44,084 nt of DNA from a bacterium (lineage in GTDB: Bacteria > Bacillota > Clostridia > Christensenellales > CAG-917), in assembly GCA_963620965.1 (NCBI GenBank), contig CAVFCJ010000001.1, forward strand, positions 1 through 44,084, given 5' to 3'. Below, in pieces: positions 27,801-42,792 of this stretch; position 1 is the first letter of the stretch, and each line of letters starts with the position of its first letter. Under the pieces are notes generated by a model. It was not told where the DNA came from, made no database searches, and was given only the letters and a program-made list of their open reading frames with translations. Made by a program: the position numbers and the translations under genes.

Positions 27801-30800
27801 TTGTCCGTCTTGACGAAGTTGCCGTTGTTGTCAACCGTGTAGAGCGTGCCCGTGAAGGTTGCAAATTGCTCGCTCTTGACAAGGTTTCTGTACTCTCTGT
27901 AAGTGTCTTCGTCGAGATTGTTGTTGCCTGCGATGTCGTTGAGGCGTTTGTAAACAAGCACATACACGCCTTCAACGTCGGTATAAATGTCGCCTTCGTA
28001 TGCCAACTGTCTCGAAGCAAGCACTTCGCTCATAACGGGCGCGGCTTTCATATATCTGTCTTCGGGACCTGCAACCGTCTTGCCGTCTGCGTCTTTGCCC
28101 GTGTAGAGCTCGCCGTCCGCATTTTCGATATAATCGTAACCCGTCGTCGGGTCATGGAAGAGTTTGACGTAGTCTTTGGCGTTGTAGTTCTTTCCGTAGT
28201 AGTTGTCGTAATCCGTGTTGCCGTTGTCGCGGTAGAAGTTCGCATAGTAGAAGATTGCGTTGGAGCCTTGTTGCATTGCCAAAATGTCTTCTTTTCTACC
28301 AAACTCTATGGACGAGGATTCGCCCTCCACGCCGTTGAGCCCTTGAATGTTGAGTCCGAGATTGAGCACGGGGATATCGCCCTCCTCGTTGAAGAGGATT
28401 GCGCCTATCGTGATGTCGTACGGATTGAGGTTTTGTTTGAGATATACCTTGAGGTTGGGCAACATATCCGCAATGCTTGCGTTGTCGGGCAAAAGTTCTC
28501 TGATGAGGACTTTCGCAAAGCCCGACGTGACGTTGAGCGCAAGAGCGTTGGTGAATATGTTGACAAACAAACTCGTCGTGTCTGCGCTTTGTTTGTCGGG
28601 GTTGAGCGCCGTCACGCTGTCGGAAGCAACGGACGCATCGGTTGCGCTCGCGTCTTCGCCGATGCCTGCCACAAGACCTGTGATCACATCTTCGAGAGAG
28701 TACTCGCTCATATCCACAAAGAGTTTTGCGTCTTTGCCGAGCAATGCCTCGGCGTCAACATACAGACCCGCTTTGCCAGTGTCTTTGTCGTTGTCATAAT
28801 AGATGCCGAGGATGTGGGGCTTGGTGCCGTCGAGGAGTTTGCCGCTGTAGTTGTTTGCGTCTCTGTCTTCGCTCGTGACATAATTGCCGTTTTCCATCAA
28901 GTCGTTCTGTTCGCCCCAAACGTCGATTGCAACGTCAAGGTCGCGAACGTCGATGCCGAACGACGGGAGAATGTAGAGTTTGAAGCCGAGGTTCAATCTG
29001 AGCGAGAAGTAGACGTTGAACGTCATATCCTCTGTGATTTGGATTTTGCCGGTCATTGCGCCGAGCAAACTGCCCAAAACGTCGCCGAGTGCTTCGTTCA
29101 CGCCGCTGTACTTCTCGTCAAGTTCTCCGTTTAGCAAAACATACAAACCGTTGTTGGCTTTGAGCGTTGCGATTTCTGTTGTATCGGTGACTTTGACGTA
29201 GTCGCCTTGGAACTTCTTGTATGCAATCTTCGCAAGAACGCTGTCCGGAACTTCCTGATACAAACTCTCATCGGTTATCTTGTTGACGACAGAGTTGTAC
29301 ACTCCCTTGTACGTTGCATAGTCGAAGTAAATCTTGCCCGCTTGCAAGAACAGGCTGCCTCTCAATGCAAGAGAGATGTAGTAGAGATTGTCGCTGTCAA
29401 CGTACTCCTTGTATGCGTAATCCGCATATTCGGGCTTATTGAAGTCGGGTTGTTGAATCGAACTTGCCTGTTGAACTTTGATGTAGTAGTTTTCGGACTC
29501 GCAAGCGTCGGTTGCGGACAGAAGAACTTTCTTTTGGGAATTGTATGTGTTCTTCTTGTAGACAAACGTTCTTTGCAGACGCACATACGCAGTTTTTGCC
29601 GTGTTTTCGACGTAGTATTCCTTATCGTTGTTCTCGATTTCCGCGATGAAGTCGGGGAACAAAGCCCAATCCGTCACAATCGGATTTGCGTTTTCGTCCA
29701 CCGCTGCGGCAGGAATATATTTCGTGCCGTTCTTGACAAACAACGAATCTTTGGTGATTGCGATAAGTTCGCCTCTATACTCGTAGTAACGAGGACCTGC
29801 GTAGTTTTCAGCATCCGAGTACTTTTGCACATCGAATTTGCCTGTTCCGTCGTAGTAATCGAACTTCCAGTTGCTCAAGCCGTCGGCTTCTTTGTCAACG
29901 CTGGTGTAGATGTCTTCGTCGGTGTTGACGTAGCGTGCGCCCGCCGCAATGCTCTTGATCGAGTACTGTGGATCTGCCGACGCGGCATCGTCAATGGCTT
30001 CTTGTCTCGTGATGTATTGGAACTCGGTGACGCTCACAGACGGTGCGTTGATTGCAACCGACAACTTGTGATTCCACAAATAGAGGTTGACAGAGAGGAA
30101 CTCGTTACGCGATTTAAGCGGAATGACAACGCTCAAAGAGCCTCTTGCTTGCTTGTATTCCGTCTTCACCGTGCCACCTTCCGTTGTGGTGAATTTTTCG
30201 TAAAGGAGCGGAACCTTGGAGCCGCGATCGAGCAAGTCTGCAACTTTTTCGCTGTTGTTGATTTGCGATTGCGTTGCGTCTGCGTAGAGAATATATGTGT
30301 CGCTGCCTTGCAACTTGATGTAGGTGTCGACTCTCTTTATGTCGTAGTAACTTGCAGTGCCTGCTTCAACCTTTGCGTCATATGCTTTGCGCTCGACGGT
30401 GGCCATTTCGGATTTTTGAGCATAAGAGCCGTCTTCCGCCTTGTAGTAAACGCCTTGTTTAGATGCGCCGGTTCCCTTGTATTCGGTGATGTCATACAGG
30501 TATTTGGACTTGCCCAAAACTTTTTCGATTTCTCTTCTCGCCGCCTTCTTTTCATCGTTTGTCGCGCTGGTGTCATATGCCTCGATAAACTTCGTGACGA
30601 CATTCTCTGCCGTATCATACGCATATCTCGTGTTGTCCGTGTAAAGCGTGACGTTGGGTTGGTTGACAAACTTCGCTTCGTCGAATTGGATCGCATTTTC
30701 GCCCATTACGAGAGAGAGAATGCTGTTGATATAGTCTGTGTTGGCAATAACTTTGATGTATCTCGACGTGATTTGCAAGCCATATGCAAACGTTCTGATG

Positions 30801-33800
30801 TAGCCGAGAATGCTGTCGTCTTTGACGAGCGGGAAGGTGCTTTCCTCTTCGTCCGCAGCCGCTTGTGCGTCGGCGGATGTCGAAGCAAGAACGCTGCTCA
30901 CGAGTTTGCGGATTTCGTTTGCGTCGACGCGCAAAGACGGAATGTTGAAGTAACTGAGGTCAACAAACAAGCCGCCGTTTACGCGCTTGTAGTTGCCATT
31001 TTCGTTCTTGTAGCAATAACTCGAGTCGTAGGAATACCTCGTACCTGCAAAGGTGTCGGAAGTTATGTACTTGTACTCGCCTGTTGTTTCGTCGAGATAG
31101 TAACTGCCGTTCTTCGTTTCGAAGTAGTGGTCGTATCTCTCGCTCGGGTCGACGTAGTTTTCGCCCGTTACGTTGGTCTTTTCGTCTGGCGAGAGCAACT
31201 CGAACGTGCCGCCCACCATATAAATGCCGAGCATATCGTGGTATTCCGTGTCGTTGCCGCCCTTCGTTTGAAGTCTAACGCTTAGGTTGACGTAACTTGC
31301 GATGTCCGCAATCAAACTTACCAACTGATCGGTGTTGTTCTTAAATTGTTCGATGACTTGTTTAAGCAAATCGATGACTGCAAACAAATCCATATCGCCG
31401 TCGAATTGATCGCCGTCGGCAGTGTACTTGACAAGTTCGGTGCGCATGAAGTTGAGCAATGCCGCAACTTGAATGTCAACGTCCAAAACCAGTTGCAATG
31501 AACGATTTACGTCGCCACCGTCGTCCGCTTGCGCCTTGATGACGAGCAGTTGCTCGTCGGTGAGGCTCGGGAAGAACGCTTGAAGCACTGCGCTCAAATC
31601 GATGTCGTTGTCGTTGCCGCTCTTGAATTGCGTTGTGATGTCAATGGTTTCGCTGAGCGTGAAGCGATCGACGTCGTCCATATTGGTATACTCTGCAAGT
31701 TCGTCGCCGCTGAGGACATATGTGCGAGAGTTGGTGAATGCGACGTTGAGATTCTTGATTGCAAGTCCGAGTTCGAGCGTCATGTCGTACTTGCCGCCGT
31801 CACTGACGTATGCATTGTTTGCAACTGCGCCCGCATCGTACTTATAAATCACAACCGATGTTTTGCCGTCTTCGAGCATCGGATATTTGGTCGTGTCGAG
31901 TTTTTGGCTGCCGTCGCCCTTTTCGTTGTCGACAACTTTGAGCAAATACGGAGTATTTACGCCTTCGTCAAACGCAACTTTGTACTTGGCATAGCGATCG
32001 CTTGCTCCTACGCTGTTTGCTTCCTTAGAGGTGATTGCACGGACATAGTTGCCGTTGTCGCTCTTGATGTAGTTGCCGTTTGCGTCTTGTCTGAAAACAT
32101 AGTATTGTGCGCTGTTGACTTTGCTTGCAAGGCTTGCCTTTTCTGCATCCGTTCCCGCATAGTCGGAATCTTTGTTGTATCTGTCGCCGTCAAGACCGAG
32201 CGCAACGTCAACCGAGAGGTTGAGGCTGTCCGACGTATTGAGTTCGACTTGCAATCCGCCGTTGAGTTCGTTATAGAACAATTCCTTGATGTCGAATCCG
32301 AGCAAATCTTCGGGGATATATTCGAGGATGGTGTCAAAGAGTTTGTCGCCGAGTTTCAAGGTGAGCAAATCTCTGTTGATGAGCATCGAAAGAGCAAGGT
32401 CTCTGTCGCTGAGGTCAACCGTGCTTGTTTGTGCGCCGCTTGCCACAAGCGCTTCGCTCGTGGACGAGGCTTGCGCTCCGCCCGCAACGAAGTATTCGTC
32501 ATCCGAATCGAAGTCGATGATGTAGTCTTTGAGAATTTCTGCGATGTTAAGACCGCCGATCGCGAACTTTTGAATGTTGAACGCTTCTTCGAGGTTGACG
32601 TAAATCGTGTTGTTGATGTAGTATGCACCGAGCCACAAACTCTCATAACCGGTTTCTGTCTCGTTGATAAGTTCTATTTTGAGTTCGGACTTTGTGAGAT
32701 CGTAAATGTCAACCATCAGCGACACGTCAAGTCTGAAGTGCGCGGAAGAATAACCCTTCGCAGTAGAGGGCATTTCAATCACAACGCCGGTGAGGTCGCC
32801 GATTATGCTGCTCAAAATCTTGCCGAGGTCGAGCGTGCCTTCGGTGATGCCGAGTTCGAGTTCAACCGAGAAGCCCACTGTGATGATGGTGTCGTAGAAC
32901 ATATTTGTCGGGACATCTTCAAAGGCATACGAATTCTTGGTTTCGTCGGTGTACTCGATTTCCTTGCCGTCGTTGAAATAGGAGTGCGCTTTGCCGTCGC
33001 GGATGTATGCGGGGAGCAATTCATCGCCTGCGCCGAAGCCTATTTCGATTCCGCCGAGTTTGAGACCCATATTGACGCAACCGATTGCGATGTCAAGCCC
33101 AAGATAGTAATCGCTGATTTGGTCGTAGAGGTCGATTGTTCTGTAATATTCGCCGTTTTCGTCCTTGACGTAGCCGAACAGACGAGTTCTCAACTGCTCG
33201 ATTTGTCTTTCTTCGCCGCCAAAGCGGATATATGTGTTGCCTGCGATGTAAGTGTCGGTGACGCTTTCAACGCCGTCCGTTCTTCTGTACATTCTGTAAC
33301 TGCGCAAACTTACGGGTTTGTCGATGTTTTCGACCTTCGCATAGTAGTTTGCGTTGGAATGGATGTACTTGCCTTGCACCTTGCCCGAAATCACGACGTA
33401 TTTGCCGTTTTCGAGGATTGCGTAGGTCTTGCCTGTTTCGCCGTTGCCGTCCTCGAATCTGTGTTTCTCGCCGTCAACCGGTGTGACGTTGTCGCCATCG
33501 ACCGTCACTTCGTAAACGTACGTCGTGCTTGCAAGATAGTATGCGTTGCCTGCAACATAGTAGGTGTCCGTTGCGGGTGTATTGCTGTAATCTTCGGTTG
33601 TGTACTTCTTGTATCTGTCGCCCTTGTACTCGTTTTGGAATTTATTGTACAAATCGAGATCGGTTGCTTTCAAATCATCCACGCTCTTGTACACGGGTTG
33701 ACCGAGATCGACGCCCAAAGAGATGTTGAACACGTCAAACACTTCTTCGAGAGATCCGAGATCGGGCAGGAACGTTGCAAGCACAAACGAGAGCAACGCT

Positions 33801-36800
33801 TTGGTGATTTGGATTTGGAATTGAGAATCGCTGTATGCGAGCAACAACACCGCGTCGCGTTGGATCGAACGATTTTGCACGCTGTCGCTTGCCGTTTGCG
33901 CGCCGTTTTCTTCATTGTCACCGCCGATCGAGCCGAGTTTGTCAACGACTTTCTTTGCAAAGTCAATGAAGTTTTCAATCTTCGAGTAGTTTTCCGCAGT
34001 GGAAACAAGGCCCGTGAGGTCAAGATAGAGCGTGCCGCCACTCAAATACAAGCCGCCCAGCACCTTTTCGTTGCCGTTGCCGATTTCGTTTGCGGTGTCG
34101 TATTTTGCAAAGTAGCCCTTGTCGTCAACTTCGACAAATTCGATTGCGAGTTCCACTTTGCTCATATCGCTGTTGTTGATGAAGTCGCCAAACGAACCGC
34201 CCGACGCAAGTCCTTGCAAATCGAGTGCCGCAAGGTCGATGTTTGCCGAAACTCTCAAACCGATGCCTACGTTGAATGCGGACAACGTTTGCAAATTGAT
34301 AATCATATCGCGGAACGCATTGGGAAGCAAACCGCCTGCATTGACGACTTCCGCGCTTGAAGAATTGAAGTAAATCAAGCCGCTTACGCTCAGAGATACG
34401 TTTTGATCCTGATATGCGCTCTTTCCGCACTTGTTGTAGAGTTTGACTTCGCTTGCAAGAGCATTGCGAGTGACATCGTTGCCGTCTGCGTCCTTTTCGG
34501 TGACTGTCATCGGAATGTCGACTCTCGAATAGAACGTGTCTCTTGCGAGTGCGGAAGCGTCGTTCTTGTTGACATAGATGTCGTTTTCAACGTCATAGAC
34601 ATAGTTGCCGTTGGAGTCAACGTTGTATTTGACGGTGTATGCGTATTGCTTGCCGTCCTCGCCCGTCTTTACGGTTGCGTAGGAGCGAGAATACATTTGA
34701 ACGTCTGTGAGATCCTCTTTGGCATAACGCTTCGTGCCTTCGGGGAGGACTTCTCCGTCGTTTATGAGCCTATATTCGCCGTCCTCGCCAAGAATGTATG
34801 CACCGTTTGCGTCAACCGTGAAGTTGGGCTTGCGGTACATGCCCGTCTTGAGCAAGTATTCGCCGTTTGCGTCCGTGTCGAACGCATAGTATATTGCATT
34901 GTCGGTGAGATCCTTTTCTCTTTCGTAGTTTTCACCGCTGAATCCGCCGATCAATTTGACGATGTTTTCGATGTAGTCGTCAAGCGAAATGAATTCGAGT
35001 TTGTCGTCGTTGTCTAGAAGCGGTTGGTTTGTATCGACGCTGATAAGACCGACTTTTGCGTCAAGTCCGAGATTGAGGTCGATGAGATATTGAGAATCCG
35101 AAGAAAGGTTACCCTCGGAATCGATCGGGGCTTTCTTGTTTGCAAATGCGAGTTTGAGTTGCAAAGCGAGCGATTCGTTCATGCCGTACGCTTTGAACTT
35201 ATCCGTTTGCGGATATAGGAACAAACCGCTTTGAGATTCGTCCATAACCAAATTGTCGGAATCGACAACCGTTTCAAACAACATCGAGAACAAGTCGTTG
35301 AGGAAGTTTGAACGCACAAACACGCCCAAGTATTTTATTCTCTTGACGCCGTCGTCGCCTATCCACGGCTTGCCTGCAAGCACGATCTTCGACACGATCA
35401 TGTTGAGGATTGTGCCGACGCTCGAGTTGCCGTCTGTCATATCCGCCGCCGTGCTTGCGTCGCTGTTGCCGCCGAGTTCCACGCCGAGTTTTGCAAGCAA
35501 GTCGAGCAAATCGACCTGTATACGCGGACCGCCGATGCCTTCCAAATCGGCAAATACTACGCCGTCTTCGAGATAGACGCCGATTTTGGTGTTGCCTTCA
35601 GCTTCATAGTCGAAAGTGATGCCGATGTACGCTTCCAAGCCTTTGAGGATGGTTTCGATGTCAAGATTGAGATTGTTAAGGTCTATCTTCGACAAGTCTT
35701 CCATGCCTATCTTTTGGAGGTTGAGTCTTGCCTTGACGTCGAGTTTGAAACCGTCGTCCATCTTGTCGGAAAGCACGAGATTGAGTCCCAAACGTTTGAG
35801 CAAATCGCCGACGCTGAACTTGTTTTGTTGCACTTCGAATCCGATTTCCTCATTGTCTGTGTTGATGCGAATCTGCGGAAGCATGGTTGCAAGAATGTCT
35901 TGCAAACTGTCCATGTTGAGGAGAATGTCGAGCAATTGGTCTAATGCGAAACCTTCGCGGACGTATGTGCCGTTGTTGTCTTGCACAAATCTTTGCTCGT
36001 TTGTGCTGTACGAATATCTATCAAGCGGCGAAACTGCTTCGAGAGCGCGCTGGTCGGTGACGAGAGTGTACGTTGCGCTTGCATAGTAGTCGACGATCAA
36101 ACTGAGGTCGATTGCGATGATATGCGCATTGGTCATCGATGTGTAGTAACTTCTATACTCGCCGTCTTCCGCTTCAACGAACGCGCCGCCGACTTTCTTG
36201 TACTTCGTGCCGGTGTAATTTGCCTTTTCGTCTGTCGTCAAAAGGACAAACTTATCCTCGCCCCTTATACCCTTTTGCGCTTTTTCGCGAATGGTTGCGT
36301 ATGCGCTGCTCGTTGTGCCGGTTGCAATATCGATATTGTCAACGCTCACACCTAGTGCGAGGAGGTTGCTGTCGATATTAACGTCTATCGCAATTGACGG
36401 GTCAAGTTGCAAATCAACACCAACGGAAATGTCGAGGTCGAGTTTTTCAATGATTTCGGCAATGTCAAGGCTGCTGCCGCCTTCTTCGCTGTCGTTTTGC
36501 GTGAGAGCCGCAATAAGTCCCACAAGGACGTTTTGCATGACGAGTACGCCGAGTTTGCCGTCCGCAATGTTGAGGATGAGTTGCATTTGCTCGTCCGCAC
36601 TGTTGGAGAGCAATTCGTCCGCCGCCGTGGACGCGTCGCCGCCATTAATGATGGAATTGAGATCGCCGAGTGCGTCCGTGATGAACTTGCAGAGCACGTC
36701 GCAGAGGTTTGTTCCTTCGAGATAAATAGGCTCGCGACCGAGACTTCCGAAGTCGAAATAGATCTTCTCGCCTTCGACGAAAGCTGCTAATATATTCTTA

Positions 36801-39800
36801 TTTGTTATTTTATTTTTAATTTCAAGAACAATATTGCTATCGTTCGGCTCGTTGAGCGCGAGGTTTGCGCCGAGACTCACTCCGAGATTGTATTCGATGT
36901 CGTCAAACACATCCAGCCCGAGTTTGATGCCGAGTTCGGAAGCAAACAAATCGATGTATTTTTCAAGACGGATTTGCTCGTCTTGTCCTTTGAGTTGCAA
37001 ATCGAGTCCGAGATCGACGTTGAGAGAAAGCGTATTGAGATTTTCCGCCGTCGTATAGATGGTCGGGTCGAAATCCTCGGGCAATACGCCGTTTTCTTTG
37101 CCGAGCGCGAGTTTTACGGAACTGAGTTCCAAACCGACGTACGCGGGGTCGATTTGAAGATTGAGTACGAGTTTATAATCGTTCTTCCACGCAAACGCAA
37201 GATAACTTCTGTCCGAATTGAGTTTGATGAATTTTTCCGGGTCGACTTGCTTGCCTGCGAGCATTTGGACGAGGGTTGTCACAAGTCCTTCCGCAAAGTT
37301 GATTTGCAAACCTTCGGTGTCAACGCCGACATAACTTATGATGCCGCCAAGCACTTTGCCGAGAATACCCATAAGGTCGATTCCGCCGCCCTCATCTGCC
37401 GCTACGGCTGCCGTGCCGCCGGCGCTGCTCGAATCGTCGGTCATCAAACCGCCGATCAATGCGCCCAGATCGATGTTGGACAATGCAAGATGGAAGTCAT
37501 CGCTCAAATCGAGGTAGACCGTGCTTACCGATTGACCTTGCGCGTTTTCACCCGTGCTTTGCAAACGCAATGCGAGGATAACGTGTTCGAGTCTTTCGGC
37601 ATTAGACATCTTGTCCACAAGAGTCATCTTCTCGTTGTAGATTTCGATTGCAATGTCGCTGTGAGATACGATGTATGCTATGTCGAGCAAACTTGCCGCA
37701 GTGTAAATTTGTTCGTTTGCATATTGTTCTTGATTTTCGTCGGTGACGTTGATCTTGACATAGTTTCCGTCAACGAGGACGTAACCTTCGCCTCTGTAAT
37801 TGAGATCAGTCACTTCTGTGAGCGCAATGCCGCACGCAATATATTGTTTGAGATATACGTCACCCTCGAACGTATTGCGTTCGTCGTCGGTGAGAAGGAC
37901 GTATTTCGCACCGCTGAGTTTGTAGACTTCGACGTATTTTGCGAGGTCTGCAAGTTTTGAACTTTCATACTTCTTGAACACTACGTTTTGAGTGAGGTCA
38001 ACGGGAACGTCGGGATTGAGATGTGCGTTGAGAGCAATGCGGAATCCGATGTTTGCGCCCGCTTCGACAGGCACTTTGTAGGTGAGAAGAAGTTGTCTTA
38101 TGAACGAATTGAGTTCGGGATTGCTGTCATCGAGGAAGGAAGCAATCCATTCGCCGAGCGTCCAAGACTTGTTGCCTTGAAGCGCGCCGACCGTAAACGT
38201 GCCTTGAATTTCGGCGTAAATACTGGGAATGGTGATGTCGCCGTAGTCGTTGAACAATTCAACGTCTTCGAACACGTTGCCTTCGCTTTGAACGTAGGCA
38301 GTCATTTCTTGCATTTTTTGTCCGTCGCGGACAATCTTGATGGATTCGACCGCGTCACCGCCGATTTCGAGGTTGAGCGGAGCGAGCGTAATGCCGTCCT
38401 CCCCTTTTACGACCGTGCCGATATAGATTTCCGCGCCACCGATTTGTTGACCTGCGTCATTGTTGACGTCAAGCGCGATACGGATGGGTTTGTTGTCGAA
38501 TTTATCTTTTACGCTCGCCCAAGCGATTTGCGCCCAAGCGGTGATATCGCTTGCGTCGATTCCTATGAGTTGATAAAGGATATCGGTCAAACCTTTTGCG
38601 ATTTGCAATTTAACATTGTCGGAAGAAAGCGCCGCGATAATGTCGAGAGCAAGAGCCTTCCTTGCATCGGCAGCGCCTTGATCGACAAAGTCTTCCGCCG
38701 CCATTGCTTCCGCACCGACCGAGCCGTTGACTGTAACGGCCGAGTCTTTTGCAAGCAATGCGAGAATGACCTCATAGAGGTCAATGTCCGTTCTGACCTT
38801 ATCCAAACCGAAGTTGCTCGCGTCGATGTAGAGCGAACCGCCCGTGTAATAAAGTCCGAGCAAAACTTCGCGTTCGGCAGTCGCTTGACCGCTGATATCG
38901 CTTGACTTTTTGCCCGTAAGTTCGATCAACAGCTCGCTGACGTTACCATTCGTGTTGATTTGGGGTGCGCCGAGCAAGTATTCTACGATAGGCGAAAGGT
39001 CGAGTTGACCCGCAACGCGCAACTCGTAGTTGAGATCCATCGGCTCATCGAATGCGAGAGTCGCTTTGGTTATGTTTTCTTCTTGATATATGCCGTCGGA
39101 ATCTTTGTAATAAAGTTTGCCGCTATATCCGTCGGGAACAGGCGTTTCTTCGATTTCGACATACTTGCCGTTTGAATCAAGCCAATATTTACCCTCGCCA
39201 AACACGAGTTCTCTTGCGCCTTGATCTGCCGCGAAGTCAAGACCGAGCGTAAGGTCGAGTCCGATGAAGGGATATTCGAGAATCTCGGTGAAATCGTCGC
39301 CTTGACGATTGTCTTTGACAAGATAATCCGTCGCTTTGTCGTTCAAACCTGCGGACAAGCCGTTGAGCGACACGTTGAGGTTGACATTGTTGCCCAAAGA
39401 TACAAACACGCCAAGTTGAAGTTCGGTCAAATTGAGCCCGTCGTTGAGCGCGAGGCGGATTCCGCCGTCGAATTCGGTGCTTGCAAATTCAATCTTTACG
39501 CCGTCGATGTCGAGAAGTCCGAGGACTTGTTCGAAGAGGTTGGAAGCAAGCACTATTTCAAGAGCGTGATTGCCGAGTTTTAATCCGTCGACGATGCCCG
39601 CCACAAATCCGAGCACTTCATTGACGTTCATGCCGCCGTCTTCTTCGGTTTCATCTGCAACGAGAGCCTGATTGCTCGACGAATCGTTCGAATCCGAGCC
39701 GATCAAGTCGATGAGTTCTCTGACGTTGAGCTTGATTTGTTTTGCACTTATGCAGAGAATGTCCGCTTTGAGATACACCCAACCATCTTGCAAATAAAGC

Positions 39801-42289
39801 ACAAGCACTTCTTCGTTGTTGGATTGCTTGTGAATTGCGATCTTTGCAGACGATTTCAAAAGCAAATCGAGAATTTGGATGTTGTCCAAACCGCCGGTAA
39901 GGTCGAGGTCGGCGTTGATGTCGAGTCTAAGACCGCCGTCGATGTTTCCGAGTTCGATCAACGCTTTGATCAAAATACCCTTAAACAACGTGCCGATTTC
40001 CTGATCGGGCATGTTGACTTCGATCTTTGCAAGCTCGCCTTTGAGGGTTTCGAGGTCGAGAGTAAGTCCCGTGGACACATTGACGTGGAGCAAATCCGTG
40101 TTCAACGCACCGTTTTTGAGAATGGGCAAATACGCGTCCTCGTTTTGAGCAAGTTCGTTTTCGAGTTTGTCGAAAGACGCCTCGAAATCAACCAAATTGT
40201 TGATTTTACCAAAGGTAATGTCAACGCCCAACACAAGTCCGATGAGCGGATCGAGGCTGTATTCGGTGTTTTCTTCATTGTATTCTCTCACGCCGAGTTC
40301 CGCACTCAAAGTGAGCGTCTTGTTCTGCTGCGCGCCGTTGTTGACATACTTTAGTAATGCGCCGGTGATGGGAATGTCCGCACCTGCGTTATCGCCTGTG
40401 AACACAAGCGAGAAAATTGCGTCGAGAATATCCCTCGACAAATCTACGCTTATATCTCTGATGTTGAAGATGTTCCCGTCCATATTGAGATTGATATGGT
40501 CGAGAATCATGCTTACAAGAGTCAAAACATCAACCGATCCTTCGCCTTCCGCCGCAGAGTATGCGCCGTGTTGAATGACGATTTCGCCGTTGTCGACAAA
40601 CGTCTGTTGAATATTTTGAGCGGTCGCTCCGCCTTTAAGACCGTCGATTGCTCCCTTGACGGTGTCAAACACGGTGTTTACGAGGTCGCCCAGAAGTTCG
40701 TTTATGTTGATGTCGTCAATCTTGAACTTCGTTCCGTTGTAACCGAGCAGACCGCCCGCGTCGATATACACACCTTCTCTTGCGCCGGTGTAGTACGCCG
40801 TCAAGCGTTTTGCGCCGTCACGGCCGAGAATTTCCGCCGCAAGTCTTGTCTTTTTGGAATCTCTAGTGTTGATTTCCGCTTGAAGTTTGATTGTGAGAGG
40901 CACTTCTCCGCTGGCAAAATCGATTTCTTTTGCAAACAACGGTTTGAGTGCTTCGAGCATTTCGGGATCGAGATTATTGGTGAGAAGATTTGAAAGGAGA
41001 GTGCCGAAAGAGCCTATCACGTTGTCGATAGACACTTTCTTTTCGTTGAAGTTGAGAGTGAGAGAGATTTCGCCGTCGAGAGTGAGGAAAGAATATTTTT
41101 CCGCGCTTTCGTTCACGACGTCGTAAAGAGATTTTTCACCGTCTTGACGAGCGGTGTTGTTTTCGTTGCGATTTTTGAGAAGTCCGGGATTTTCGTCGCT
41201 GCCGACTAAATTGAGGTCGGGGGCACCTGCAAAGTCTGCTTTGGCATAGCCGAGTTTAATGCCGAATTCGGATTGGAACGTGCCGTACTTTTCTTCAACG
41301 CCTTCTACGCCATAGGAGTTGAGGTTTACGTCGATGTCGAACGTCGTGCCTTCGAGAGCGCCGTTCATGATGTCGGCTTCCATATAAAGAGCCACACCGG
41401 CGAGTGCGCCGAGTTTGCCCAAATCGAGACCGAGCACGTCTTTGACGAGTCCGATGATGTTTTCGGGAATAAGACCTTGAATGAGCGGAATTATGCTGAC
41501 GATAAGTCCGAGATCGCAAGGCATACGCAACACTTGATGTCCGTTGCCGTAGTCAACGCGCGTGCCCTTGCTTGCGCCGAACAATACGTTGACAAGCAAC
41601 TGTTCGACGGTCAAATGTGCCAAATCGATGTTGATAAGGCTGTTGATGAGTCCGCCGATGTCATAACCCATCAAAGTGTCATACAACATAGAGGAAAGAT
41701 CGAGTTGTTCGAGAGCGTCCGCAAATTTCGACACGAATTTTGTCATGTCGATCGTGTCGGTATAAACGACGTGGACGCCGTCACCCTTCTTGATTCCGCG
41801 CATATCCGCAACAAGTTTACCTTCGTAATAATACGCGCCGAAAAGCAGAGTCCCTTCACCGTTTTTTGCCATCGTGCAAATGGTGTCTTGGTCGATGGTT
41901 CTGCCGTTTATTTCGGCTGTCAACTTGCGGAATTCAACAAGTATTTCGCTGTTGGAATCCTCGACAGTGTCGATGTCGCCTGCAAAGCGAGCAACGATAA
42001 GCGAATCGGACGAATCCTTGGAAAAGCCCATCACGAACGCCGTGTCGACTCTTATGTAGCGCTTATCTTTTTCTTCGTCCGCTTTTTGCAATGCTGCGGC
42101 TTTGAATGCGTTCCAAAAATCCTGCGCTCCGATGTACTCGGCATTGTCGATGTCCGGATTGGGCGTCGGCGTAGGAATGACAGGAGTGTCGACGTTCCCG
42201 TCAGCTTTCGGATTGCACGCTACGAGACCGAACAGCATTACGCTGACCAGCACGAGCAACAATACGAGTGATAACTTTCTCATTCTCAT
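15812..42289 (-). CDS. Giant surface lipoprotein, about 8,825 aa (26.5 kb), modular, family unknown
   Basis: Uninterrupted ORF 15812..42616. The probable start is ATG 42289 (MRMRKLSLVLLLVLVSVMLFGLVAC), with GGAGGA 4 nt upstream. It has a lipobox signal peptide, repeated modules and Ig-like C-terminal repeats, and is bounded by its own promoter and terminator. Confidence 0.9.
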   Translation of the reverse strand: MRMRKLSLVLLLVLVSVMLFGLVACNPKADGNVDTPVIPTPTPNPDIDNAEYIGAQDFWNAFKAAALQKADEEKDKRYIRVDTAFVMGFSKDSSDSLIVARFAGDIDTVEDSNSEILVEFRKLTAEINGRTIDQDTICTMAKNGEGTLLFGAYYYEGKLVADMRGIKKGDGVHVVYTDTIDMTKFVSKFADALEQLDLSSMLYDTLMGYDIGGLINSLINIDLAHLTVEQLLVNVLFGASKGTRVDYGNGHQVLRMPCDLGLIVSIIPLIQGLIPENIIGLVKDVLGLDLGKLGALAGVALYMEADIMNGALEGTTFDIDVNLNSYGVEGVEEKYGTFQSEFGIKLGYAKADFAGAPDLNLVGSDENPGLLKNRNENNTARQDGEKSLYDVVNESAEKYSFLTLDGEISLTLNFNEKKVSIDNVIGSFGTLLSNLLTNNLDPEMLEALKPLFAKEIDFASGEVPLTIKLQAEINTRDSKKTRLAAEILGRDGAKRLTAYYTGAREGVYIDAGGLLGYNGTKFKIDDININELLGDLVNTVFDTVKGAIDGLKGGATAQNIQQTFVDNGEIVIQHGAYSAAEGEGSVDVLTLVSMILDHINLNMDGNIFNIRDISVDLSRDILDAIFSLVFTGDNAGADIPITGALLKYVNNGAQQNKTLTLSAELGVREYNEENTEYSLDPLIGLVLGVDITFGKINNLVDFEASFDKLENELAQNEDAYLPILKNGALNTDLLHVNVSTGLTLDLETLKGELAKIEVNMPDQEIGTLFKGILIKALIELGNIDGGLRLDINADLDLTGGLDNIQILDLLLKSSAKIAIHKQSNNEEVLVLYLQDGWVYLKADILCISAKQIKLNVRELIDLIGSDSNDSSSNQALVADETEEDGGMNVNEVLGFVAGIVDGLKLGNHALEIVLASNLFEQVLGLLDIDGVKIEFASTEFDGGIRLALNDGLNLTELQLGVFVSLGNNVNLNVSLNGLSAGLNDKATDYLVKDNRQGDDFTEILEYPFIGLDLTLGLDFAADQGARELVFGEGKYWLDSNGKYVEIEETPVPDGYSGKLYYKDSDGIYQEENITKATLAFDEPMDLNYELRVAGQLDLSPIVEYLLGAPQINTNGNVSELLIELTGKKSSDISGQATAEREVLLGLYYTGGSLYIDASNFGLDKVRTDIDLYEVILALLAKDSAVTVNGSVGAEAMAAEDFVDQGAADARKALALDIIAALSSDNVKLQIAKGLTDILYQLIGIDASDITAWAQIAWASVKDKFDNKPIRIALDVNNDAGQQIGGAEIYIGTVVKGEDGITLAPLNLEIGGDAVESIKIVRDGQKMQEMTAYVQSEGNVFEDVELFNDYGDITIPSIYAEIQGTFTVGALQGNKSWTLGEWIASFLDDSNPELNSFIRQLLLTYKVPVEAGANIGFRIALNAHLNPDVPVDLTQNVVFKKYESSKLADLAKYVEVYKLSGAKYVLLTDDERNTFEGDVYLKQYIACGIALTEVTDLNYRGEGYVLVDGNYVKINVTDENQEQYANEQIYTAASLLDIAYIVSHSDIAIEIYNEKMTLVDKMSNAERLEHVILALRLQSTGENAQGQSVSTVYLDLSDDFHLALSNIDLGALIGGLMTDDSSSAGGTAAVAADEGGGIDLMGILGKVLGGIISYVGVDTEGLQINFAEGLVTTLVQMLAGKQVDPEKFIKLNSDRSYLAFAWKNDYKLVLNLQIDPAYVGLELSSVKLALGKENGVLPEDFDPTIYTTAENLNTLSLNVDLGLDLQLKGQDEQIRLEKYIDLFASELGIKLGLDVFDDIEYNLGVSLGANLALNEPNDSNIVLEIKNKITNKNILAAFVEGEKIYFDFGSLGREPIYLEGTNLCDVLCKFITDALGDLNSIINGGDASTAADELLSNSADEQMQLILNIADGKLGVLVMQNVLVGLIAALTQNDSEEGGSSLDIAEIIEKLDLDISVGVDLQLDPSIAIDVNIDSNLLALGVSVDNIDIATGTTSSAYATIREKAQKGIRGEDKFVLLTTDEKANYTGTKYKKVGGAFVEAEDGEYRSYYTSMTNAHIIAIDLSLIVDYYASATYTLVTDQRALEAVSPLDRYSYSTNEQRFVQDNNGTYVREGFALDQLLDILLNMDSLQDILATMLPQIRINTDNEEIGFEVQQNKFSVGDLLKRLGLNLVLSDKMDDGFKLDVKARLNLQKIGMEDLSKIDLNNLNLDIETILKGLEAYIGITFDYEAEGNTKIGVYLEDGVVFADLEGIGGPRIQVDLLDLLAKLGVELGGNSDASTAADMTDGNSSVGTILNMIVSKIVLAGKPWIGDDGVKRIKYLGVFVRSNFLNDLFSMLFETVVDSDNLVMDESQSGLFLYPQTDKFKAYGMNESLALQLKLAFANKKAPIDSEGNLSSDSQYLIDLNLGLDAKVGLISVDTNQPLLDNDDKLEFISLDDYIENIVKLIGGFSGENYEREKDLTDNAIYYAFDTDANGEYLLKTGMYRKPNFTVDANGAYILGEDGEYRLINDGEVLPEGTKRYAKEDLTDVQMYSRSYATVKTGEDGKQYAYTVKYNVDSNGNYVYDVENDIYVNKNDASALARDTFYSRVDIPMTVTEKDADGNDVTRNALASEVKLYNKCGKSAYQDQNVSLSVSGLIYFNSSSAEVVNAGGLLPNAFRDMIINLQTLSAFNVGIGLRVSANIDLAALDLQGLASGGSFGDFINNSDMSKVELAIEFVEVDDKGYFAKYDTANEIGNGNEKVLGGLYLSGGTLYLDLTGLVSTAENYSKIENFIDFAKKVVDKLGSIGGDNEENGAQTASDSVQNRSIQRDAVLLLAYSDSQFQIQITKALLSFVLATFLPDLGSLEEVFDVFNISLGVDLGQPVYKSVDDLKATDLDLYNKFQNEYKGDRYKKYTTEDYSNTPATDTYYVAGNAYYLASTTYVYEVTVDGDNVTPVDGEKHRFEDGNGETGKTYAILENGKYVVISGKVQGKYIHSNANYYAKVENIDKPVSLRSYRMYRRTDGVESVTDTYIAGNTYIRFGGEERQIEQLRTRLFGYVKDENGEYYRTIDLYDQISDYYLGLDIAIGCVNMGLKLGGIEIGFGAGDELLPAYIRDGKAHSYFNDGKEIEYTDETKNSYAFEDVPTNMFYDTIITVGFSVELELGITEGTLDLGKILSSIIGDLTGVVIEMPSTAKGYSSAHFRLDVSLMVDIYDLTKSELKIELINETETGYESLWLGAYYINNTIYVNLEEAFNIQKFAIGGLNIAEILKDYIIDFDSDDEYFVAGGAQASSTSEALVASGAQTSTVDLSDRDLALSMLINRDLLTLKLGDKLFDTILEYIPEDLLGFDIKELFYNELNGGLQVELNTSDSLNLSVDVALGLDGDRYNKDSDYAGTDAEKASLASKVNSAQYYVFRQDANGNYIKSDNGNYVRAITSKEANSVGASDRYAKYKVAFDEGVNTPYLLKVVDNEKGDGSQKLDTTKYPMLEDGKTSVVIYKYDAGAVANNAYVSDGGKYDMTLELGLAIKNLNVAFTNSRTYVLSGDELAEYTNMDDVDRFTLSETIDITTQFKSGNDNDIDLSAVLQAFFPSLTDEQLLVIKAQADDGGDVNRSLQLVLDVDIQVAALLNFMRTELVKYTADGDQFDGDMDLFAVIDLLKQVIEQFKNNTDQLVSLIADIASYVNLSVRLQTKGGNDTEYHDMLGIYMVGGTFELLSPDEKTNVTGENYVDPSERYDHYFETKNGSYYLDETTGEYKYITSDTFAGTRYSYDSSYCYKNENGNYKRVNGGLFVDLSYFNIPSLRVDANEIRKLVSSVLASTSADAQAAADEEESTFPLVKDDSILGYIRTFAYGLQITSRYIKVIANTDYINSILSLVMGENAIQFDEAKFVNQPNVTLYTDNTRYAYDTAENVVTKFIEAYDTSATNDEKKAARREIEKVLGKSKYLYDITEYKGTGASKQGVYYKAEDGSYAQKSEMATVERKAYDAKVEAGTASYYDIKRVDTYIKLQGSDTYILYADATQSQINNSEKVADLLDRGSKVPLLYEKFTTTEGGTVKTEYKQARGSLSVVIPLKSRNEFLSVNLYLWNHKLSVAINAPSVSVTEFQYITRQEAIDDAASADPQYSIKSIAAGARYVNTDEDIYTSVDKEADGLSNWKFDYYDGTGKFDVQKYSDAENYAGPRYYEYRGELIAITKDSLFVKNGTKYIPAAAVDENANPIVTDWALFPDFIAEIENNDKEYYVENTAKTAYVRLQRTFVYKKNTYNSQKKVLLSATDACESENYYIKVQQASSIQQPDFNKPEYADYAYKEYVDSDNLYYISLALRGSLFLQAGKIYFDYATYKGVYNSVVNKITDESLYQEVPDSVLAKIAYKKFQGDYVKVTDTTEIATLKANNGLYVLLNGELDEKYSGVNEALGDVLGSLLGAMTGKIQITEDMTFNVYFSLRLNLGFKLYILPSFGIDVRDLDVAIDVWGEQNDLMENGNYVTSEDRDANNYSGKLLDGTKPHILGIYYDNDKDTGKAGLYVDAEALLGKDAKLFVDMSEYSLEDVITGLVAGIGEDASATDASVASDSVTALNPDKQSADTTSLFVNIFTNALALNVTSGFAKVLIRELLPDNASIADMLPNLKVYLKQNLNPYDITIGAILFNEEGDIPVLNLGLNIQGLNGVEGESSSIEFGRKEDILAMQQGSNAIFYYANFYRDNGNTDYDNYYGKNYNAKDYVKLFHDPTTGYDYIENADGELYTGKDADGKTVAGPEDRYMKAAPVMSEVLASRQLAYEGDIYTDVEGVYVLVYKRLNDIAGNNNLDEDTYREYRNLVKSEQFATFTGTLYTVDNNGNFVKTDKDILQGFTGEGNLQYALASDYTGASAYETGKKVVYNGQEYYPIDPNENGYTDMSEADAFAAQYPNVKVYKQVTDFTNYTKALALNLGDLLGGGTFDVASVLADLECVELGLNLDIRMTLDDVINWTYQFTQFIDDPQIGEYFYFIATSLENSKEFQSLIGLNLDLKVYLKTANLVKMIAGDNSVGILQVLEGAKIYLELTYETNFHGNEKPKALLWVEVKDGKLYLNIDASQIGDIVGWGDFFSYGVVDGLDLSSILGSIATTASAQALTAADDEEEVNTGLIPANIWSILNVVLGRLLIANDFITVGLNETLIADLVGMLADSDSAVLQGISEFLPKLYTTDTKDTSGITINFYGNSPSIDINLGFKVGTLYYETVNNYNAMYGASGKYFKGSDWSGATFKKESDGEYTVGNGADDDNTYVLVSTDDYALVAYAYPAWAGDTYDYVAATNTFTKHTASDTKGAYLKQGDFAIAISLGKLYATVNKDFSVDKDEKFADRNADNSIKYVYVESKDGEYVKDAGGTYRLATDADIEEVHYAKQASYGNYVKLQNATAHLEMSIEISMYSSGNAGNANIIDLSEILDLIMGLINPNSAISGSQLKLNIANEFGNNSGAFLTLDLVANIDVETYKVELGLELNKKTASMATEKTLLGLYLVENAVYVDLSGILGETAKIAVTDLNLDGLLEGVLGKFLAEDDATDASGASIASKDDIGTIEENKDHLKDYAYFMINVTPQKLLLQLNADFVNAIYKKIMAIRGLEQKDLIPDIGDLLVRMDATSGKTTISLNLRFSDGLYFCLDIPSASITKDISESIATHFGLSTEDKKFYKQLTQDELAANPSQEKYVKNAAGEYVLDENPVDESKTYYRHTHTAQVPRDYIEILSLDLDSLINGTGTFDISSLNLPTIGLKASLNLTMTSKNLKPGQNGYDESLAGWVQDLLANLLGGTALLGKFTALTYVDANTLNDGSSVYTGKVYTKNSSGDYILHSEKTYVSGTTYYKYTLADVNITMANEINLTIDIAANVNLAPILAYGIGGILYSDIAVDISLGKPVGSNLISLYYLGSSRLMKKNGTNWELSVATSATYTSNEIYSDALYIDASGLGLGKIKLQGIAGLLGATPSYDAKAASGASVSADATTSDADTAASNALYLQVDIQNGRLGVTFDNAFITTLIGMLGLDLGDIELPPIKSVKLDVNLGAKGLDSINLNAQLDSVGTGANIKISDFDIALGKSMVDNENLIEEVKTGYTGLTYSKTSGLMSLVQNVIDSLKPGLSINIQNKVWQLTQAKGVATLYQDSSITLSGKKVLTSTNIPDSSPQKYNIRLDLESNRADTGLSAILGGNNIFITNITLPSGGLVGTVAPLISALNCLDLGSMLGSSPLLALVKGTDGDDATYEYPTAKTASDTATAAADSGYTYPLNLENLIKSIEVNLFNDNGYWPYFSGATAVSNGAGKISVKVKLNKDAYNELIIKVITVVLGLMKDVVEKDNEAYFGDVQQARGYETTSGLVWEQHEIGDVLISGVGKSNEITNIFNTLQGMVDRNASTDEKVEYLEPIARSLPVSMTKWALLFALDAAGVSLSFGTIKNVASEVIEDLNFLLGGILPIPFATGDIDPSINLYIDLNPTASEYGCTSGQTVKPGIQAIEIMVNAEKTGIGASESMKYNKAKTTTMSSMSTMANGGGASGTTTNLGEAWDFFMIRITPYSTVDNTFNTGLLYFDEAESADPIATQVTPPSEIVIDDPATRSGNAVKADGSTTAITLRDSAFLDATVFPQYANVKFPVVLSGKQMVSYDNSGSYNDAPGSQIVWDAATVDLTAATSEDENGRRLAGYVYGYALNVVLYAIPVYVTNDKEAQTQSIKGYYNINGKYTEKALGIDIDTNSSKYMAELPDLVRIPFRTGGKQTFATYLKDSAGNMAYAIIDPISSAPSETINGSAYQILVQPTADEITAGAEANVNTDGNKFLLMPAYIAGLVTEKDSNGNDVYKTVKVSNEDGTQVEYYVLSRSKLPTGKAFPAGTIDWNTDDFKYDWQGSTDWSSGATSTVQVGFTYQWGLGKAVEDTISLTAKNYKISRLTSMSTDASGTTSQTLKSERDSDGNYTTVLEIKAMDIDADMQNLVTYLSGFKYVSGKFTSESSMSGFDVEWDTAELEKALQAITTKDSNGNAVVNFYKGLDVTIKAKVGGDRFSIFTSVTKTSTSTDKTGFVGKSESFAGKFAQEVDVRIVIKPYVFDSMAKSLVFDQYQYENITADSFGTAYQINVKDAQGNTSVENLTVGNGLFVEAPFIKVGETYHNAYSNGVHDLKSDEITYEGYSNQRTYPLYAKLVIGTEYSGKQEVYVPIEVNEIKPSAVSLTVEHDNTLNPTWYESEAYEKFNVSVGMNTYTMFPDWTTVQYYTNAACTKLKSQQNIFDGGTIYAQVEAYATADGTKNGTKLALVNTGKTDENGEPIYSAQKITLRLNVEQQTIQSVNFFYDETIGDVAAYVRKYANDEAKLAELKAKLADISNYTGSVYQQTHVSDGTAFGIDPINFATNPSDYFKTSDWGDAIGGTPVKINLVKGDSYIAYVRAFDTVVSSKGIDGTDKVQTVYMTIGNDKVQFNVNIPSYEFTDGTMSDTTLAFVDGKVAGTDGDMLQFNYNVFNEWKLPSKATVQTAQGVGEITIDVKWVDYAAPNKDELKSDEDGKLYVEREYFFFDGLSMRYPSAGAFTAKIYLEGFNTNVTIEPNGMSRNYDVFDKFEFARTATVKVGDTTYYNVPIHWESTAMPTADEINQGSFTRKMYVLGVYVEGQDIYSDYTVTINNDFTIDKLTGGYKADNFAINVAKDNFYQGLPKSANVKVGTKTIPVTLAWSDDYTAQSGFDGNMALTITSKDGDEVVLESVVNVAVKVESAGITGLAAGQKYVLDPYAKSGTLFESGSLQEVNVSGSDNTQYAIVEYELDDQAFYDNIASSFGKKFKVAVTYKYNAGKNANVETGEIEVYVVNRNIMFMSDYANRSIVVDTFLNKDASYLDNWMRITTMGGDTFDAYFDWSDVDKLIKSGKSNSAYMATAIVGIEKANGGYVLEDITDDNKVNPTYVAIEDYIEYKQKTDANFALTDETRYMLAKQRVNIPVTVLDRTIVDAELLLDDTGLRYLYSDTSKYSTITDTLIDNTDGDGRYIDIVYNKTTGMPEQYVYYNHFAYVGADKLPDTMQLTFANGDVGEYHITYENAPSASDLAGLTSTLERKMIVHVWNSEAKEIEVTDAFEMTIKIRVSKVTLTNSDLAYNDMSVGSYKYNKDVYADRENTVYDTSKYAQTATFYVGAQFMLAQTWWTEGRSENAGKFTYNSTYTKRHGFTDTDGEVYPGIYSVYSANNEFKAEGQEGNYTGVKFYTYNADTKNYILYTGEVTYASADTTYKSESGQDLYILVYVTTQTLNASWDASSVNYTYRGGNVAVEATLTSNASGNSATSKVDVTIHVNNSKATGDATLVEGDTCGLLSGGKFVIDPYADGNVFERKTGYSGDRYEPSTTDEGTYVKNNLDGTYKLVNGQYVLLSEDELNRDYANFPTRLTVTLANGTKVDVPVTWDFSGVNVTYAGGEYYAYAIVNYDGKYNYTATDSTSANEVGTQRIKFTVNVIDRSVKAGKDGIANETELKKLAGYAYGVNSGVAAYINPYEYIKPTMPTSISLNERQADGTYTAQTYSTTSDTRKLAWSFDEFRPSYNGGVIYVTAKLIGVDGNVQTYKIPFLVQKMEATNITEAQTTVTGGVTKLTAKSGGYSSSISSGVADSAFSVDPNDPNRLTMPFTYIGKFNVYNPTYNAIDGTVTYPETASTTTEIEFFYAIVSMPADEQYTVTSSGITTSASGSNATVQLGDQERISVNIDQTNSTLQPTKLAVSSLYSGTTLNMTTTVSGASVNIVWFGTVEVYLVSDKVNAAATYAVMFSSSGANVTLPTYADRKVVYKLYAAIGTVVDGNGTVVTTQPATKDFADSHTAVEEGQTIPEYQVLSDMATITING
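15815..22669 (-). other. C-terminal zone of the giant protein: array of Ig-like (Big_4-like) beta-sandwich repeats
   Basis: Recurrent LPxxVxVxxxxGxxxxVxVxW-type motifs: LPSKATVQTAQGVGEITIDVKW, FARTATVKVGDTTYYNVPIHW, LPKSANVKVGTKTIPVTLAW, FPTRLTVTLANGTKVDVPVTW, LPDTMQLTFANGDVGEYHITY. Domain boundaries were not determined. Confidence 0.55.
23558..41869 (-). repeat. Zone of at least 14 long degenerate protein modules (about 250-750 aa each) in the giant protein
   Basis: The anchor motif hhG(L/A)Y(Y/L)xxGx(L/V)Y(I/V/L)D recurs, with first codons near nt 41848, 40804, 39808, 38866, 37528, 36793, 35587, 34063, 32638, 31234, 28816, 27166, 25852 and 24634. Most are followed by an acidic Ala/Ser/Thr linker and an amphipathic hydrophobic segment. 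Confidence 0.7.
42215..42289 (-). other. Lipoprotein (SPase II) signal peptide of the giant protein
   Basis: MRMRK n-region, LSLVLLLVLVSVMLFG h-region and lipobox L-V-A-C, followed by a Pro/Thr-rich spacer NPKADGNVDTPVIPTPTPNPDID. Confidence 0.8.
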
Positions 42290-42353
42290 AATCTCCTCCG
42301 AAACATACGCTTCTACGCGTGTAGCGCATATGTGTAGATTATTATACAAGTTA

Positions 42354-42382
42354 ATTATACATTTTTCTCGCGTGTTTGTCAA
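42354..42382 (-). promoter_or_regulatory. Consensus sigma-A promoter of the giant gene
   Basis: Minus strand reads TTGACA (42382-42377)-N17-TATAAT (42359-42354), an exact match to both consensus hexamers at optimal spacing. Predicts a 5' UTR of about 55-60 nt. Confidence 0.75.
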
Positions 42383-42757: not shown

Positions 42758-42786
42758 TTGACAGCAAAAGCGAATGGTGTTATATT
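42758..42786 (+). promoter_or_regulatory. Promoter of the DUF1624 gene, positioned for a leaderless mRNA
   Basis: TTGACA (42758-42763)-N17-TATATT (42781-42786), preceded by TGt (extended -10). The ATG at 42793 begins 7 nt after the -10 and has no Shine-Dalgarno sequence. Confidence 0.6.
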
Positions 42787-42792
42787 CATTTT

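Follow-up and report, generated by a model that had tools for sequence, protein, structure and literature searches.

Conserved acidic loops with a recurrent short motif in a giant predicted surface lipoprotein of gut Christensenellales

The window analysed here, 44,084 nucleotides long (contig CAVFCJ010000001.1 of assembly GCA_963620965.1, positions 1 to 44,084), comes from a bacterium of the Christensenellales and contains an 8,934-codon minus-strand open reading frame (ORF; 15812..42616), which encodes a predicted giant surface lipoprotein. We found that this protein carries 13 acidic loops, one per repeat unit, and that these loops share a short motif that is maintained at the same positions in orthologues. 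All peptides that an earlier note had flagged as acidic Ala/Ser/Thr linkers at module junctions lie in this ORF; 11 of the 13 loops were listed there, and two (J6 and J7) are new (Table 1). We interpret the linkers as conserved, predicted disordered surface loops bearing a short linear motif (SLiM), which may serve as hinges or lids and as docking elements, and we give this reading a probability of about 0.5.

Thirteen acidic loops and their shared motif

The loops are 15 to 30 residues long, have a net charge of -1 to -7, and consist of 45-75% Ala, Ser, Thr, and Gly. They contain more Asp and Glu than the body of the protein (21% versus 15%), whereas Lys and Arg (2.5% versus 8%) and hydrophobic residues (13% versus 36%) are depleted. 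Each loop has a Gly/Ser-rich lead-in, the conserved motif, and an acidic tail that is free in length and sequence. The nine peptides quoted in the earlier note each occur once in the translation of 15812..42616, and seven of them were located exactly where the note had placed them; GEDASATDASVASDS lies at 28616-28660, within the range 28574-28660 claimed for it, and TASAQALTAADDEEE at 26972-27016, within 26963-27022. Two further ranges, listed without a peptide, translate to ATPSYDAKAASGASVSADATTSDADTAASN (24359-24448) and GTDGDDATYEYPTAKTASDTATAAADSG (23558-23641).

The core of the loops can be described as [S/G]-[E/D]-A-x-[T/V/I/A]-[A/S]-[A/D/S]-[D/E], i.e., of the S-E-A-x-T-A-A-D type, and sharper forms of the loop occur in orthologues (GASEAVTAADG, SSSEAITADD, and NQALSAADGE). 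A strict heptapeptide, [EQ]A[LVIM][TSVA]A[ADS][DEG], was found three times in the giant protein and four to eight times in several orthologues, compared with 0.01-0.04 occurrences in shuffled sequences. Besides, a position weight matrix (PWM) trained only on the orthologues of other species detected seven sites scoring 8 bits or more in the giant protein, against 0.27 expected, and six of the seven fell in loops listed by the earlier note. When all ORFs of the genome were scanned, the motif reached 12 bits or more six times: four times in the giant protein, once in a small lipoprotein, and once in a doubtful ORF of 95 residues. Within the source genome, the motif is all but confined to the giant protein, and with only two such matches outside it, a genome-wide sequon is unlikely. 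The small lipoprotein is encoded by a 369-residue ORF on contig C5 (minus strand; MKKTLVSVLALVLVVSLSLVAFVAC...) and has the motif-like AASGASAAAEDD about 35 residues past its lipobox Cys; it is the only credible match outside the giant protein, and searches with the unit profiles do not pick it up as a paralogue.

Evidence for selection on the motif comes from the orthologues. When nine family members about 30% identical to the source protein were aligned over their full length, all 13 loops were in register, with the motif near the start of each loop and the tail free in length. An 841-residue segment around the flagged region contains only 45 invariant columns, and these include A1995, A1998, A2387, T2389, and A2390 of J4 and J5; likewise, NGAQTASD of J6 hardly varies among the 10 closest species. 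We also reduced a 50-species alignment to 37 nonredundant rows (<80% identity) and tallied the residues of each column instead of matching a pattern. Position 1 of the motif was Ala in 33 (J10) and 35 (J11, A5643) of the 37 species, and position 4 was Ala or Ser in 32 (J10) and in all 37 (J11, A5646). Thr was the commonest residue at position 3, followed by Val, Ala, or Ile; position -1 was Glu or Asp, and the columns beside the motif were essentially free. Among the 10 closest species, identity was 76% in the motif core, 91% at its two key Ala/Ser positions, 61% in the other loop residues, and 75% in the body, and indel columns per residue were denser in the loops than in the body (0.30 versus 0.16). 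Even the most distant family members, lipoproteins of 6.5 kaa (thousand amino acids), retain the motif. Thus, a conserved core of 6 to 8 residues lies inside a fast-drifting, predicted disordered segment, which fits the usual description of a SLiM.

The earlier note had also argued that the likeness among the linkers is maintained by selection and not by recent DNA duplication, on the grounds that the hexapeptide ASTAAD is encoded differently in two neighbouring modules. Indeed, it reads GCG TCC ACG GCG GCG GAC at residue 1995 (J4) and GCA AGC ACG GCG GCG GAT at residue 2387 (J5), with Ser encoded by TCC and AGC, respectively, and 14 of the 18 nucleotides identical. A comparison of the gene with itself at the DNA level gave a best match of 35 nucleotides at 83% and nothing above noise; the resemblance of the loops therefore does not stem from recent duplication, and a DNA-level repeat or a nucleic-acid function is rejected. 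Position and motif are conserved at about 30% identity and across about 50 species. The earlier note had named a lack of conservation of the linkers in orthologues as refuting; the linkers proved to be conserved, so that the argument for selection holds and purifying selection on the motif appears well supported.

Place of the loops in the repeat unit

We modelled residues 5130-6150, which comprise two units, with AlphaFold2 and the 50-species alignment (mean predicted local distance difference test score [pLDDT], 70.5; predicted template modelling score [pTM], 0.52). The segments with pLDDT below 50 were J10, J11, J12, and one more variable loop (residues 6003-6030), and each modelled J loop was flanked by a helix on either side within a beta-rich body. 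Composition, low pLDDT, sequence drift, and length variation all fit predicted disorder. This accords with the flexibility that the earlier note had suggested for the linkers, as do the variable loop lengths among orthologues and an indel density twice that of the body.

The same note, however, placed the linkers at junctions between independent modules and considered a polyprotein cut into subunits, and here our results differ. In hhalign comparisons of loop-centred windows, the paralogous alignments (probability, 90-98%) crossed the loop, extending from a median of -138 to +70 residues, which implies that the conserved unit is centred on the loop. The unit is about 250-300 residues long, and the loop lies mid-unit, 28-50 residues past a Y-x-D beta-hairpin anchor, flanked by two short amphipathic helices; hypervariable Tyr/Asn/Gly-rich beta inserts separate the units. 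Furthermore, the segment between J10 and J11 did not behave as an independent fold: modelled alone, it reached a pTM of 0.44, with a confident central insert, weaker ends, and a lower pLDDT in the pre-loop part, and it retained none of the LolA/LprG/LppX/RseB/Csa1-class Foldseek matches of the two-unit model. Together, these results indicate, if indirectly, that the unit is built from a pre-loop and a post-loop half, with the acidic loop on the surface between two helices. Cleavage of a loop inside a unit would nick the unit rather than release subunits; a simple polyprotein model does not fit, and the motif is unlikely to be a site separating free subunits. Selection and flexibility thus stand, whereas module junctions and the polyprotein do not.

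The central insert between J10 and J11 (about 26150-26700; residues 5310-5490, approximately), one of the Tyr/Asn/Gly-rich variable inserts, was the most confidently predicted part (pLDDT of about 90), and it gave only weak Foldseek matches to lobes of the surface lipoproteins TbpB and LbpB (probability, 0.28 or less).

Possible roles of the loops

As negatively charged, flexible hinges or lids, the loops would maintain the solubility of the hydrophobic, beta-rich units and give neighbouring halves freedom to move. The motif itself might be a site for docking or recognition that is read 13 times over the length of the fibre. Its reader may be the unit itself, if the small-residue A-x-x-A face packs on the flanking helices or at a cavity mouth, or, alternatively, a dedicated extracytoplasmic partner. 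Several points weigh against this interpretation. About half of the motif copies in the source protein are degenerate (PWM score below 8 bits; DASTAAD, GASIASK, and DASVASD). The model covers three of the 13 loops (J10, J11, and J12), and the flagged pair J4/J5 lies outside it. In addition, the structure of the motif is not confident, since a helix appears only in J10 and at a pLDDT of about 35-40, and self-docking is not supported by the AlphaFold2 confidence; the moderate confidence of the model as a whole makes the case for a unit formed across the loop an indirect one. The putative function has been deduced from sequence and models only, and a well-conserved motif in a disordered loop also looks like an enzyme recognition site.

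Such an enzyme might be a dedicated or general extracytoplasmic protease that cleaves each loop, for instance in a signal-peptidase-like manner with small residues read at -1 and -3 or -4 (A-x-T-A↓A-D), and the outcome would be either a nicked, noncovalently held chain, as in SEA and GAIN domains, or a ladder of surface fragments, as known from lipoproteins and adhesins on the surface of mycoplasmas. We consider this unlikely. The motif does recur once per unit in an exposed loop that AlphaFold2 predicts to be disordered, and its two near-invariant small residues, three apart and with an acidic residue before and after, would suit endopeptidases specific for small residues. A precedent is found in Mycoplasma pneumoniae, whose surface lipoproteins undergo extensive endoproteolysis, MPN052 having 14 proteoforms (PMC7990945). 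However, the conserved neighbourhood contains no protease gene, and the loops are intra-unit. As read from the sequence, the small residues A-x-T-A are present, yet the site is not preceded by a membrane-spanning-type hydrophobic h-region, which signal peptidase I normally needs. Moreover, only one other lipoprotein among the exported proteins has the motif, so that a general protease would be left with a single substrate. Sortase-type processing was rejected: PF04203 had no match in the 96%-complete genome, in which positive controls were matched, and the loops have neither the hydrophobic nor the basic tail of a sortase substrate, again as read from the sequence.

It is also conceivable, with a probability lower than that of cleavage, that the loops are O-glycosylated or O-acylated and that the neighbouring acyltransferase, of a type that transfers acyl groups to acceptors outside the cytoplasm, acts on the protein or on its glycans. 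A precedent is the O-glycosylation of Ala/Ser/Thr-rich regions in Gram-positive surface proteins, among them Acm2 of Lactiplantibacillus plantarum. The high content of Ala, Ser, Thr, and Gly in the loops and the prevalence of Thr at position 3 agree with this, as does the acyltransferase gene, a divergently oriented direct neighbour in 11 of 12 distant genomes, four of which lack an adjacent MetG gene. Nevertheless, the best conserved residues are Ala, and Val, Ala, or Ile frequently occupies position 3; a hydroxyl group is therefore not obligatory at that position, which weakens the case for an O-linked modification. The gene cluster lacks a glycosyltransferase, and the motif is confined to a single protein, which general O-glycosylation sequons are not. 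Acyl_transf_3 enzymes, furthermore, are known to act on sugars rather than on proteins, and nothing ties the acyltransferase specifically to the loops.

More doubtful again is a variant of the hinge and docking interpretation in which each of the approximately 13 units would be an open LolA/LprG-like half-barrel, the loop would join its two lid helices, and the motif, docking by itself or recognised by a partner, would gate or latch a hydrophobic cavity, making the protein a megadalton chain of pockets for lipids or other hydrophobic ligands. This idea derives from the Foldseek results for the two-unit model, in which open beta-half-barrel lipoproteins were the top matches (4egd, probability 1.00, E value 1.2e-4; LprG 3mh9, 0.90; Csa1B, 0.82; LppX and RseB, lower), with TM-scores of only 0.25-0.29 and root mean square deviations of 13-15 Å. 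Neither the PDB profile search nor the Pfam and NCBIfam scans gave a sequence-level match to this class, and we regard the resemblance as a lead, not as membership. If the variant is true, gut Christensenellales with small genomes of about 1.3-1.7 Mb would carry a chain of pockets on their surface, working with the membrane acyltransferase and the SPFH/zinc-ribbon module, e.g., in lipid scavenging or hand-over. A groove of the AsmA/TamB/VPS13 type is not supported; no such protein was among the top Foldseek hits (ApoB100 and LptD appeared only at probabilities of 0.06 or less), and the N terminus, a lipobox and not a transmembrane anchor, is at odds with it.

The acidity of the loops might instead reflect binding of divalent cations (Ca2+ or Mg2+), which would rigidify the fibre or bridge it to an anionic, teichoic-acid-rich wall, a role that we judge improbable and below those above. 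In the giant RTX and BIg adhesins, Ca2+ sites lie between Ig-like domains; every loop here has a net negative charge, and in nearly all species the motif is immediately followed by clusters of Asp and Glu. The acidic tail, however, is variable in both length and sequence, with its Asp residues at no fixed spacing, the conserved residues are Ala and Thr rather than acids, and known Ca2+ linkers are short, ordered segments, in contrast to the predicted disorder of these loops. Lastly, that the likeness is a by-product of composition in neutral low-complexity filler, as the compositional bias and the freely drifting tails might suggest, is already contradicted by an enrichment of the motif of at least 100-fold over shuffles, by Ala residues that hardly vary at their fixed positions in about 50 species, and by a core as conserved as the folded body while other loop residues are less so.

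Returning to the motif-bearing hinge or lid loops, we found no description of the family or of the motif in the literature searched, and to our knowledge a motif kept 13-fold and order-wide in a bacterial surface lipoprotein has apparently not been described before. A motif retained 13 times per protein across an order, in an unannotated family restricted to uncultured gut Clostridia of the Christensenellales type, offers a defined starting point for experiments. It sets the boundaries of constructs, which should be drawn around a loop and not between loops, and it supplies exact peptides (...E-A-x-T-A↓A-D...) for searches of gut metaproteomes as well as targets for point mutations. Should the motif prove to be where cleavage, modification, or latching takes place, it would add a new recognition element to those of the Gram-positive cell surface; as a conserved hinge only, it would amount to a modest structural detail.

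Carrier gene, neighbourhood, and comparison with known systems

Table 1. Positions of the acidic loops, of other features of the giant protein, and of neighbouring genes in the window
Feature	Position	Strand	Peptide	Core	Basis or remark
J1	39632..39697	-	SDSNDSSSNQALVADETEEDGG	NQALVADE	Weight matrix, 16.0 bits
J2	38663..38749	-	KDSAVTVNGSVGAEAMAAEDFVDQGAADA	AEAMAAED	Orthologue alignment, composition
J3	37382..37441	-	TDDSSSAGGTAAVAADEGGG	TAAVAADE	Weight matrix, 16.3 bits
J4	36587..36643	-	GGDASTAADELLSNSADEQ	DASTAADE	ASTAAD at 36617-36634; A1995, A1998 invariant
J5	35420..35473	-	GGNSDASTAADMTDGNSS	DASTAADM	ASTAAD at 35441-35458; A2387, T2389, A2390 invariant
J6	33869..33934	-	GSIGGDNEENGAQTASDSVQNR	GAQTASDS	New; orthologue alignment
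J7	32417..32494	-	YFVAGGAQASSTSEALVASGAQTSTV	SEALVASG	New; weight matrix, 15.2 bits
J8	30836..30886	-	ASTSADAQAAADEEEST	DAQAAADE	Alignment, weight matrix; EAMTAAD in close relatives
J9	28577..28660	-	GEDASATDASVASDSVTALNPDKQSADT	DASVASDS	Alignment, composition
J10	26972..27016	-	TASAQALTAADDEEE	AQALTAAD	Best motif copy, 23.1 bits; AlphaFold2 pLDDT <50 over residues 5196-5219
J11	25667..25720	-	AEDDATDASGASIASKDD	GASIASKD	AlphaFold2 pLDDT <50 over residues 5634-5665
J12	24359..24448	-	ATPSYDAKAASGASVSADATTSDADTAASN	GASVSADA	Weight matrix; AlphaFold2 pLDDT <50 over residues 6053-6085
J13	23558..23641	-	GTDGDDATYEYPTAKTASDTATAAADSG	AKTASD	Length 28-73 residues among orthologues
Giant lipoprotein gene	15812..42289	-			About 8,825 residues; ORF open to 42616; probable start M110 of ORF at 42289
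Lipoprotein signal peptide	42215..42289	-		L-V-A-C	Predicted lipobox, Cys at residue 134 of ORF; read from sequence
Big_4 (bacterial Ig-like group 4)	17048..17182	-			Pfam E value 4.9e-5, 23.2 bits (cut-off, 22.1)
HGSNAT_cat/Acyl_transf_3-type membrane acyltransferase	42718..43848	+			Divergent, upstream; PF07786, 8.3e-23
SPFH/Band_7_1 protein with three C-terminal zinc ribbons	14531..15760	-			Downstream; PF13421, 5e-69
Zinc-ribbon protein	13423..14502	-			Second downstream; syntenic

The true start of the giant gene is almost certainly the Met codon at 42289, directly before the predicted lipoprotein signal peptide. The N termini of the orthologues all read MRKxKFAxLFVLVLCL...VAC and align with MRMRKLSLVLLLVLVSVMLFGLVAC; since they begin at the equivalent of codon 110 of the ORF, the product is expected to be a lipoprotein precursor of about 8,825 residues. 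Its signal peptide ends with ...MLFGLVAC, which fits the lipobox pattern [LVI][ASTVI][GAS]C and predicts a lipoprotein, and the lipobox is kept in every family member inspected, including distant ones (LLVGC and FVAC). No orthologue has a counterpart of the 109 codons that open the long ORF (42290-42616, minus strand; MKMCERATVKIW...). As a whole, the protein is predicted to be an N-terminally lipid-anchored surface protein of about one megadalton with 13 ancient repeat units.

The only Pfam match in the protein is a weak one to Big_4, which lies inside a C-terminal Ig-like array of about 2,300 residues; in Pfam and NCBIfam scans the first 6,300 residues or so matched no recognised family, and neither did 10 loop-centred units scanned separately. 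A PDB sequence-profile search with the giant protein gave no match at an E value of 1 or less. Self-BLAST of the intact protein found no internal match, and the repeats became visible once the protein was cut into pieces. The repeat number was confirmed independently by a two-unit profile, which matched full-length family members in 9 to 14 separate stretches.

The family is narrow and unannotated. It gave 58 hits among 1.84 billion representative proteins, and a collection of species-representative genomes queried with the alignment around J12 contained it in 56 species; among fragment proteins, the alignment query gave three hits only. Almost all carriers bear the label Christensenella or Christensenellales and are uncultured Clostridia from the guts of humans, rabbits, and ruminants. 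The source genome (1.45 Mb, 96% complete, 47% GC) devotes about 1.8% of its length to the giant gene alone, and a search with unit profiles found no paralogue of the repeat unit elsewhere in it; the genomes of 11 other carriers are 1.1-1.7 Mb in size. The closest database relative, a Logan-assembled protein of 5,149 residues, runs out of frame (…GWATSSPTASSTVSTCPCCSS…) at its C-terminal end, just ahead of J10; the probable cause is a frameshift from assembly or sequencing rather than a naturally shorter protein.

In the distant genomes compared, the acyltransferase gene is the more constant upstream neighbour, as the MetG gene, 4 kb further, is adjacent in 7 of 11 genomes only. The acyltransferase gene is kept even where MetG synteny is lost, which makes the four-gene cluster of acyltransferase, giant lipoprotein, SPFH protein, and zinc-ribbon protein tighter than background synteny and the acyltransferase a candidate partner of the giant protein. 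On the other side, in at least 38 of 56 species loci the gene immediately after the giant one is the SPFH gene, and the second zinc-ribbon gene is present in at least 21, a count limited by locus length. The SPFH and zinc-ribbon pair, which resembles YdjI/YdjG of the PspA membrane-stress module of Bacillus subtilis, provides further candidate partners, in each case by synteny only.

Among known giant surface proteins, Ebh of Staphylococcus aureus, Embp of Staphylococcus epidermidis, and SasG/Aap have in common with the protein described here a megadalton size, many tandem ancient repeats, a surface location, and Ig-like domains over part of the chain. Our protein differs from them by its predicted N-terminal lipid anchor in place of LPXTG and sortase, by a repeat unit that matches no Pfam or NCBIfam family, and by an internal, predicted disordered acidic motif loop in each unit where those proteins have short ordered interdomain linkers. 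LolA, LprG, LppX, RseB, and staphylococcal Csa1 (DUF576) are lipoproteins with a beta-sheet and lid helices, but they are single domains of about 200 residues without such a loop, which in our model lies between two helices.

The Acm2 AST domain of L. plantarum and the serine-rich repeat adhesins share Ala/Ser/Thr-rich low complexity with the loops, and SGASVSADATTSDAD resembles the S-x dipeptide repeats. The loops are, however, acidic, have a fixed non-hydroxyl Ala core, and extend over 15 to 30 residues instead of the hundreds of S-x residues of a serine-rich repeat glycoprotein region, an assignment that we rejected. Accessory Sec and Gtf genes do not adjoin the giant gene, although a genome-wide search for them was not made.

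Processed lipoproteins and adhesins of mycoplasmas (MPN052 of M. pneumoniae and the P97/P102 families of Mycoplasma hyopneumoniae) are likewise large, lipid-anchored surface proteins of small-genome bacteria. Their cleavage motif, S/T-X-F↓X-D/E, differs from the motif described here, and our loops, at most candidate cleavage sites, lie inside a conserved unit. Cleavage of the mycoplasma surface proteins has been reported in or near disordered regions (PMC7990945).

The closest parallel in kind is with SLiMs, in which a core of 6 to 8 residues is likewise kept within a fast-evolving, indel-rich, charged, predicted disordered segment of low hydrophobicity. SLiMs have mostly been described in eukaryotic intracellular proteins, whereas here the motif comes once per repeat unit on a predicted bacterial surface lipoprotein.

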